In this document: one piece after another, positions 16,907 through 18,346 of the stretch
Layout: the number at the start of each line of letters is the position of its first letter
How positions within the stretch are numbered: position 1 is the stretch's first letter
Origin: Escherichia coli
Lineage (GTDB): Bacteria; Pseudomonadota; Gammaproteobacteria; Enterobacterales; Enterobacteriaceae
DNA: 64,000 nt
Assembly: GCF_030013205.1 (NCBI RefSeq)
Contig: NZ_CP122648.1
Reading direction: 5' to 3' (one strand)
Made by a program: the position numbers and the translations under genes
Notes under the pieces: generated by a model
What the model saw: the letters and a program-made list of their open reading frames with translations, nothing else
Told to the model about the DNA's origin: nothing
Database searches by the model: none

Positions 16907-18346
16907 TTACTGCAACCAGGTCGCGGCGATTACGCTGGAAATCAGCGACATCACAATCAGTACAATCAACACCAGGCGCATTGATCCTGGCAGCGGTGCG
17001 GCATCGGCGACGGCCTCGCTCGGTTTGCCAGGCACGACGCGACCAAACCAGCGAATAAACCAGGCGAAACTGGCGACCGATTCAATCATCAGCAGAATCA
17101 TGGCGGGCAGCAGGATCCAGTACTCCACTGACAACGCAAAACCGGCGGCAAACAGCGGGAATTTACTGAAGAAGCCGTTGAACGGCGGTACGCCGGTAAT
17201 CGCCAGCGCTGCCACGCAGAAACCCACGCCTGGCAACGGCAGGGTGTGCAATACGCCACGCAGACGCGGCAACAAGCGCGTGCCGCAGCTGTAACTCAGC
17301 GCACCTGCTACAAGGAAAAATAGGCTTTTAGCGAACGCGTGGTTGACGATGTAGGCGATGCTGCCCTCCAGCGCCAGCCGCGAGCCGAAGATGGTGAGCG
17401 ACAAGCCGAAGAACATCCAGCCAAGTTGAGTGATGGTCGACCAGGCCAACAACCGCTTCATATCCTGCTGTGGCAAATACATCAGGAAGCCGTAAAGAAT
17501 GGTGACCAGTGCCATGACCATGCCAACGCCGCCAATCACATGCGGGATATTGCCGCCGTCGATAATGGCGCGGGCAAAAATGTAAACGCCCACTTTCACC
17601 ATCGATGCGGCGTGGAGATAGGCGCTGATCGGTGTTGGCGCTTCCATTGCTTCCGGTAGCCACGCTTGCATCGGTAGCTGGGCCGATTTCCCCCACGCGG
17701 CAAACAGGATGCCACCATAAACCAGATAGCGTGCGTCGCCGTGTAACTCGCTCATCGCGCTGAGCGCAAACGTTCCGGTCTGCAAAAACAGCGTGGCGGC
17801 GGCAAGATACAACCCCAACGAACCGATATGAGTGATAAGCAACGCTTTTAGTGCTGAACGCTGCGCTTTATCGCTCTGGTAATAACTGATCAACGCCCAG
17901 GATCAGCCGCCCGTAATTTCAAAAAACAACAACTGACCGAGCAGCGTCGAGGAGAGTACCAGTCCCGCCATCGCGCCGATAAAAACCAGCAAAAATGCGT
18001 AATAACGATTCGTGCCGTTATGCGGGTGTTCGCGATTTTTATCCGTCAGATAACCCGTGGAGTAGATCGTGACCAGCAAACCGAGGAACACCACCACAAA
18101 CAGAATCAGCGTACTCACGCGATCAATGACCAGGCCAAACAACGCCACATCCCCCACGTTGACCAACGTCAACGTGACGGCAACTTTATCGGCCTGATAA
18201 AACGCGGAGATCAGTGACAACATGCACAGCGTGGTCAGCGCGGCGAACAAAACCCCCCATTCGGCGGCCCGACGTTGTGGCGAAAACGAAACGACCAGTG
18301 CGCCGATAAAAGGCAGCATTAACGTCGTCAGAGCAAGATTTTCCAT
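16907..18346 (-). pseudogene. hyfD: hydrogenase-4 membrane subunit HyfD (NuoL/antiporter-like) interrupted by in-frame TGA at 17903..17905
   Basis: 147-codon ORF, TGA, then in-frame S-W-A-(TTG) plus 328 codons = 479 codons, the full HyfD length as recalled; context FFEITGG*SWALISYY aligns with conserved NuoL-family segment. Confidence 0.7.

Follow-up and report, generated by a model that had tools for sequence, protein, structure and literature searches.

An in-frame TGA stop makes hyfD a pseudogene in a clone of porcine Escherichia coli

The window analyzed here, a stretch of 64,000 nucleotides of an Escherichia coli genome (RefSeq assembly GCF_030013205.1, contig NZ_CP122648.1), carries on its minus strand the hydrogenase-4 operon hyfABCDEFGHIJR-focB (Table 1). 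The annotation of near-identical records, with which draft contigs agree, places hyfD between hyfC and hyfE. In the list of open reading frames this slot was occupied by two frames in the same phase, 17903..18346 (147 aa, starting with ATG) and 16907..17893 (328 aa, starting with TTG), and translation of 16907..18346 as a single frame revealed 480 codons, that is, 479 sense positions and the terminal stop. The only internal stop of this frame lies in the context FFEITGG*SWALISYY, where the minus strand reads TTT GAA ATT ACG GGC GGC TGA TCC TGG GCG TTG ATC AGT. A sequence-only reading had described an in-frame TGA splitting hyfD at 17905..17903 and had counted 147+1+3+328 = 479 codons; both the split and the sum proved right, as did the identification of the gene, which showed 99.9-100% nucleotide identity to annotated hyfD genes. 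This level of identity also excludes a chance pattern of open reading frames.

Table 1. Positions of hyfD, its parts and the other hyf genes in the window.
Feature	Position	Strand	Remarks
hyfA	21339..21956	-	upstream of hyfD, intact, from near-identical RefSeq annotation
hyfB	19321..21339	-	upstream of hyfD, intact, from near-identical RefSeq annotation
hyfC	18363..19310	-	upstream of hyfD, intact, from near-identical RefSeq annotation
hyfD pseudogene	16907..18346	-	479-codon frame of the NuoL-like antiporter subunit of hydrogenase-4, with 1 internal stop
hyfD, translatable N-terminal stub	17906..18346	-	147 codons, TM1 to mid-TM5
hyfD, premature stop TGA at codon 148	17903..17905	-	TCA on the plus strand; mutated base 17903
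hyfD, untranslated remnant	16907..17902	-	codons 149-479 and stop; PF00361 antiporter core
hyfE	16245..16895	-	downstream of hyfD, intact
hyfF	14660..16240	-	downstream of hyfD, intact
hyfG	12955..14670	-	downstream of hyfD, intact
hyfH	12400..12945	-	downstream of hyfD, intact
hyfI	11645..12403	-	downstream of hyfD, intact
hyfJ	11239..11652	-	downstream of hyfD, intact
hyfR	9197..11209	-	downstream of hyfD, intact

The intactness of the other hyf genes was taken from the records of ETEC4079 and K_EC180, in which these genes bear no pseudogene flags (coordinates correspond to the annotated record minus 1), and the same gene lengths were found in draft assemblies of the clone described below. 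In one draft with the same hyfD stop (GCA_021649645.1, JAJAQT010000009.1, 1..526), the gene call upstream of hyfC comprises 299 residues, compared with the 672 residues of HyfB, which suggests either an additional hyfB lesion or a quirk of gene calling. We infer that the stop in hyfD may exert polarity on hyfE through focB, lowering downstream expression. A search downstream of the stop for a C-rich, G-poor, rut-like tract showed none (maximum excess of C over G of +9 in 78 nt, at a base content of 27.7% C and 29.3% G), and no prediction of Rho-dependent polarity follows from it.

Among 5,426 complete E. coli genomes, hyfD (“hydrogenase 4 subunit HyfD”) was matched at a coverage of at least 80% in 4,287, and no match was found in 1,134. 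Seventeen genomes were 100% identical to the window over the 1,440-nt frame, and the next group, at 99.9%, differed by one mismatch. Alignment to reference hyfD, as the sequence-only reading had suggested, revealed intact alleles of 479 aa that lie one base away: strains CFSAN018748 and EcPF15 both encode the intact HyfD WP_001544798.1 in the same operon slot between hyfC and hyfE, sharing 1,439 of 1,440 nt with the window, and the only difference is a C->A change at nt 444, so that the codon reads TGC (Cys148) in the intact alleles and TGA in the window. Since nt 444 is the sole difference, the lesion amounts to a C-to-A transversion of the coding strand, located in the window at 17903, where the T of the plus strand corresponds to A on the coding strand. 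The ancestral cysteine agrees with the earlier expectation of a nonsense mutation at a conserved site normally occupied by Leu, Cys or Trp. From the window allele only 147 residues can be made. Thus, because of the TGA at codon 148, the hyfD of the window is a pseudogene of the hyfD family and not a functional member: it retains the position and the near-complete identity of its orthologs, and a stop-creating point substitution relative to the intact orthologous allele interrupts the frame of 479 aa.

Comparison of the repaired HyfD with PDB sequences by phmmer showed full-length homology to MrpA (8e-47) and to E. coli NuoL (4e-46). In the alignment the segment FFEITGGCSW of HyfD pairs with GWEGVGLCSY of NuoL, so that E143 corresponds to NuoL E144, the glutamate that antiporter-like subunits conserve in TM5, and C148 corresponds to NuoL C149. 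The stop is accordingly located inside TM5, five residues past Glu143. Pfam analysis of the fragments placed Proton_antipo_N (PF00662) on the 147-aa stub and Proton_antipo_M (PF00361) on the 328-aa remnant; both domains and the TM5 glutamate are those of the NuoL/MrpA-type fold, to which HyfD is homologous over its whole length, including the cysteine that follows the glutamate. As translation ends in the middle of TM5, the stub lacks the entire Proton_antipo_M core. Compared with NuoL/MrpA-type subunits, the truncated protein keeps the N-terminal domain and half of TM5, and by alignment it is devoid of the Lys/His channel residues of TM7, TM8 and TM12. HyfD is therefore predicted to be lost as an ion-translocating subunit.

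The distribution of the allele was determined with a 55-mer, designed so that each of its 28-nt seed words covers the variant base, in the 5,426 complete E. coli genomes. TGA was present in 17 of these genomes and TGC in 4,029. All 17 TGA genomes are from pig or wild-boar isolates of Korea, Japan, France and Belgium: K_EC180 (Korea), EC556, EC571 and EC581 (Japan, as judged from AP accession prefixes and strain names), W13-16 and P15-25 (O139:H1, France), and eleven ETEC-numbered strains, among which ETEC4079 is recorded as Belgian. W13-16 and P15-25 have been described as O139:H1 ST1 and were sequenced by PacBio RSII (PMC8798679). Over positions 5001-30000 of the window these same 17 genomes, and no others, showed approximately 100% identity, the next best match being 99.0%; as the only genomes nearly identical over these 25 kb, they form one clone. 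The sequence-only reading had named a sense codon in closely related genomes as evidence against a nonsense mutation: such genomes do exist outside the clone, with TGC, whereas every genome within it has TGA. No TGC-bearing sister genome near the clone was found in the complete-genome set, and the mutation may therefore be as old as the lineage or younger.

In NCBI, ENA and Logan assemblies, the exact 147-aa fragment was found in 65 contigs (99 index blocks) and the exact 328-aa fragment in 54 contigs (86 index blocks), most of the blocks holding contigs of 10-20 kb from draft assemblies. The TGA is thus a heritable allele, carried by 17 complete genomes of one clone and by many drafts. The members of the clone that were compared differed from the window by 0-4 SNPs over hyf loci of roughly 13 kb, which indicates that they are distinct isolates and that the stop is older than their diversification. 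The SNPs within the clone (four nonsynonymous, two synonymous and one intergenic) are too few for a conclusion on relaxed selection. The stop is already known, in that the PGAP (RefSeq) annotation of the 17 genomes gives hyfD as ‘pseudogene, internal stop’; these pseudogenes (K_EC180, W13-16, P15-25, EC556/571/581, ETEC4079 and others) are 100% identical, have the same stop and show no difference from the window at the hyfD locus. The fragments are also deposited as “hypothetical proteins” (147 aa, BDY73662.1 and STL88801.1; 328 aa, BDY73663.1 and STL88796.1).

Other features of the window were recorded alongside. The window differs from ETEC4079 by a single base over 64 kb, located in focB (8444..9175, minus strand), the last gene of the hyf operon, where a run of five G (plus strand, 8490..8494) replaces the six G of ETEC4079 and most genomes and the resulting frameshift leads to a product of 243 aa with an altered tail, compared with 282 aa. 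Sporadic occurrences of the G5 run were seen in 12 unrelated genomes, of which seven belong to the same ETEC-numbered (CP122xxx) series, and in only one of the 17 clone members, which points to a homopolymer assembly error or to slippage and not to decay of the lineage. The gene aegA (38315..40296, plus strand), which encodes a formate-dependent uric acid utilization protein, is present as two overlapping open reading frames owing to a 2-bp AC duplication at about 38734..38735 (GGCGGACACGCG compared with GGCGGACGCG); this duplication is shared with ETEC4079 alone, annotated there by PGAP as ‘frameshifted’, and is absent from the 16 other clone members and from all other genomes. A coordinated decay of the formate genes hyfD, focB and aegA was considered and set aside, since no lineage pattern was seen, the focB change being sporadic and that of aegA restricted to the window and ETEC4079. 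In addition, an IS200C-family element (25371..25962, plus strand) lies between bamC and purC. Rfam assigns 25371..25494 to the Hfq-binding sRNA STnc490 (146 bits), and behind it comes tnpA, annotated at 25505..25963 in ETEC4079. The ethanolamine utilization operon eutS-eutR (47770..62629, plus strand) is contiguous and bears no pseudogene flags in the ETEC4079 annotation; in K-12 the CPZ-55 prophage presumably lies inside this operon.

The proposal of the sequence-only reading that the stop inactivates hydrogenase-4 was only partly supported: it held for HyfD, which is truncated, and extends to the enzyme as a whole only as a possibility, considering the published work on related systems. In Pectobacterium atrosepticum, the only species with a genetically dissected FHL-2, deletion of hyfDEF from the active complex caused no decrease in H2 and slightly increased HyfG (PMC7384014), and HyfD, HyfE and HyfF were judged not essential for biosynthesis or activity (PMC7384014, Finney et al. 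2019). Hydrogenase-4 of E. coli K-12 produced no detectable H2 even when hyf was driven by hyc or T5 promoters (PMC7654741); the hyf operon has been termed silent, and hyf-type operons without a hyfD occur in nature (PMC7654741). Since K-12 hydrogenase-4 gave no detectable H2, there was perhaps little activity to lose. The delta-hyfDEF strain of P. atrosepticum, in which the distal membrane module is gone and HyfABC and HyfGHI stay, provides a model for the residual enzyme; it was, however, constructed by cleanly deleting three genes, and its species has an active hydrogenase-4, whereas the window has a nonsense mutation in one gene, still encodes HyfE and HyfF, and belongs to a species whose hydrogenase-4 is not detectably active. 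By analogy with these systems, and in view of the recurrent hyfD lesions described next, the loss of HyfD is probably of small consequence for hydrogenase-4.

The same gene has been inactivated elsewhere in E. coli and Shigella, by nonsense or frameshift. Clustered with the 147-aa fragment at 90% identity are truncated HyfD products of 142, 149, 151, 170, 247, 249 and 269 aa, and the lesions near that of the window comprise stops at codons 143 and 150, in 22 and 12 contigs, respectively, and a frameshift near codon 146, in 7 contigs. Since both the mutations and the genetic backgrounds differ, they represent independent events; their closeness to each other may reflect only the clustering by fragment length, or possibly a local mutational hotspot around the GGGCGGC tract. 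A 2026 pangenome study of 2,377 E. coli genomes listed hyfD among the most frequently pseudogenised metabolic genes (PMC13322260).

The best explanation of these observations, to which we assign a probability of roughly 0.93, is that hyfD carries a C-to-A nonsense mutation that is a fixed pseudogene allele of one porcine clone and a nearly neutral loss. On this reading, the coding-strand transversion at 17903, from TGC (Cys148) to TGA, arose in the ancestor of a single porcine pathogenic clone, an O139:H1/ST1-type edema-disease and ETEC lineage to which the strain of the window belongs, and translation ends in the middle of TM5, leaving a stub of 147 residues and a non-functional HyfD. The loss is probably neutral or nearly so, as hyf of E. 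coli is poorly expressed and catalytically silent, and the dispensability of HyfDEF for H2 in the related FHL-2, together with the lesions of hyfD in other lineages, points in the same direction. Any hydrogenase-4 that remains would amount to no more than an FHL-1-like core (HyfABCGHI), lacking the distal antiporter module. In the clone the mutation may also entail a functional loss of hydrogenase-4. A point against this explanation is that all eleven of the remaining hyf genes are intact in the clone; the event may be recent, or a residual function may still be under selection.

HyfD might also still be made at a reduced level, either through readthrough of the stop by tRNA-Trp or through a restart at TTG that would give a protein assembled from two pieces, and we consider this improbable. 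Of the stop codons, UGA is read through most readily in E. coli, so that a small amount of full-length Trp148 HyfD may be formed by leakage, the other operon genes are still intact in the clone, and an in-frame TTG occurs 9 nt past the stop with a Shine-Dalgarno-like match of -6.3 kcal/mol. However, the stop context UGA-U is not known to be among the leakiest, and no signal supporting readthrough by tRNA-Trp was seen in the sequence. A scan for start codons and Shine-Dalgarno motifs near the stop revealed TTG as the only kind of in-frame restart codon within 150 nt, and the pairing of the nearest one lies below that of the real starts of hyfD (-8.4 kcal/mol) and hyfE (-9.7 kcal/mol). Besides, a break inside TM5, five residues past the glutamate, is a poor split site for a membrane protein. 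A restart or split gene was not supported, though it keeps a small probability, and neither route was backed by a conserved signal.

An adaptive reading, in which hydrogenase-4 of the porcine edema-disease clone has been remodelled to an FHL-1-like core or the dosage of HyfD is tuned by readthrough, appears quite unlikely, the intact neighboring genes being the one observation in its favor. If it were true, the intactness of these genes would reflect continued selection, and the core of HyfABC and HyfGHI could, as in the hyfDEF deletion of Pectobacterium, be as active as the complete enzyme or more abundant, with altered handling of formate and H2 in the pig gut.

Decoding of UGA148 as selenocysteine, which would give a full-length Sec-containing HyfD, is hardly credible, although the UGA exactly replaces a cysteine codon. 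A swap between Cys and Sec is the classic signature of selenoproteins, E. coli has the Sec machinery, and its FHL pathway already uses the selenoprotein FdhH. In agreement with this signature, the in-frame UGA occupies the position of Cys148 in all other E. coli alleles and of Cys149 in NuoL. However, an Rfam scan of 17700..18000 (E-value threshold of 10) showed no match to any RNA family, and the fold of the 69 nt beginning at the UGA, examined for a SECIS stem-loop (-18.5 kcal/mol, z = -0.68), was no better than that of shuffled sequences, being matched by 51 of 200 shuffles. The sequence 3' of the stop is also unchanged from the closest Cys alleles and, since the stop codon is the sole difference from them, no SECIS has co-evolved downstream. 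Furthermore, the residue concerned, Cys148, is part of a membrane helix in an antiporter-like subunit and not of a redox site. Lacking both an Rfam match and a SECIS-like fold, selenocysteine recoding was rejected.

The other alternative raised by the sequence-only reading, a base-call or assembly error in a strain that is truly TGC, can be dismissed with near certainty, even though the focB homopolymer (about 8489) elsewhere in the window does resemble an assembly error. The hyfD change is a substitution and not a homopolymer indel. It recurs in 17 complete genomes that were sequenced independently, by several laboratories in several countries (with PacBio RSII documented for two), and in many draft assemblies, and it segregates perfectly with one clone.

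The hyfD of this clone is thus a lineage-specific nonsense pseudogene of an ordinary kind, and the operon around it is known to be dispensable and to decay often. In the annotation of these genomes, the “hypothetical proteins” of 147 aa and 328 aa should be read as the halves of one pseudogene, and metabolic models of the lineage should not assume a full hydrogenase-4 (FHL-2) membrane arm. The hyfD TGA is a single-nucleotide marker of a globally distributed pathogenic clone of pigs and wild boars and could be used in typing. It is one more case of the dispensability and repeated loss that are known for hyfD and the hyf operon in E. coli.
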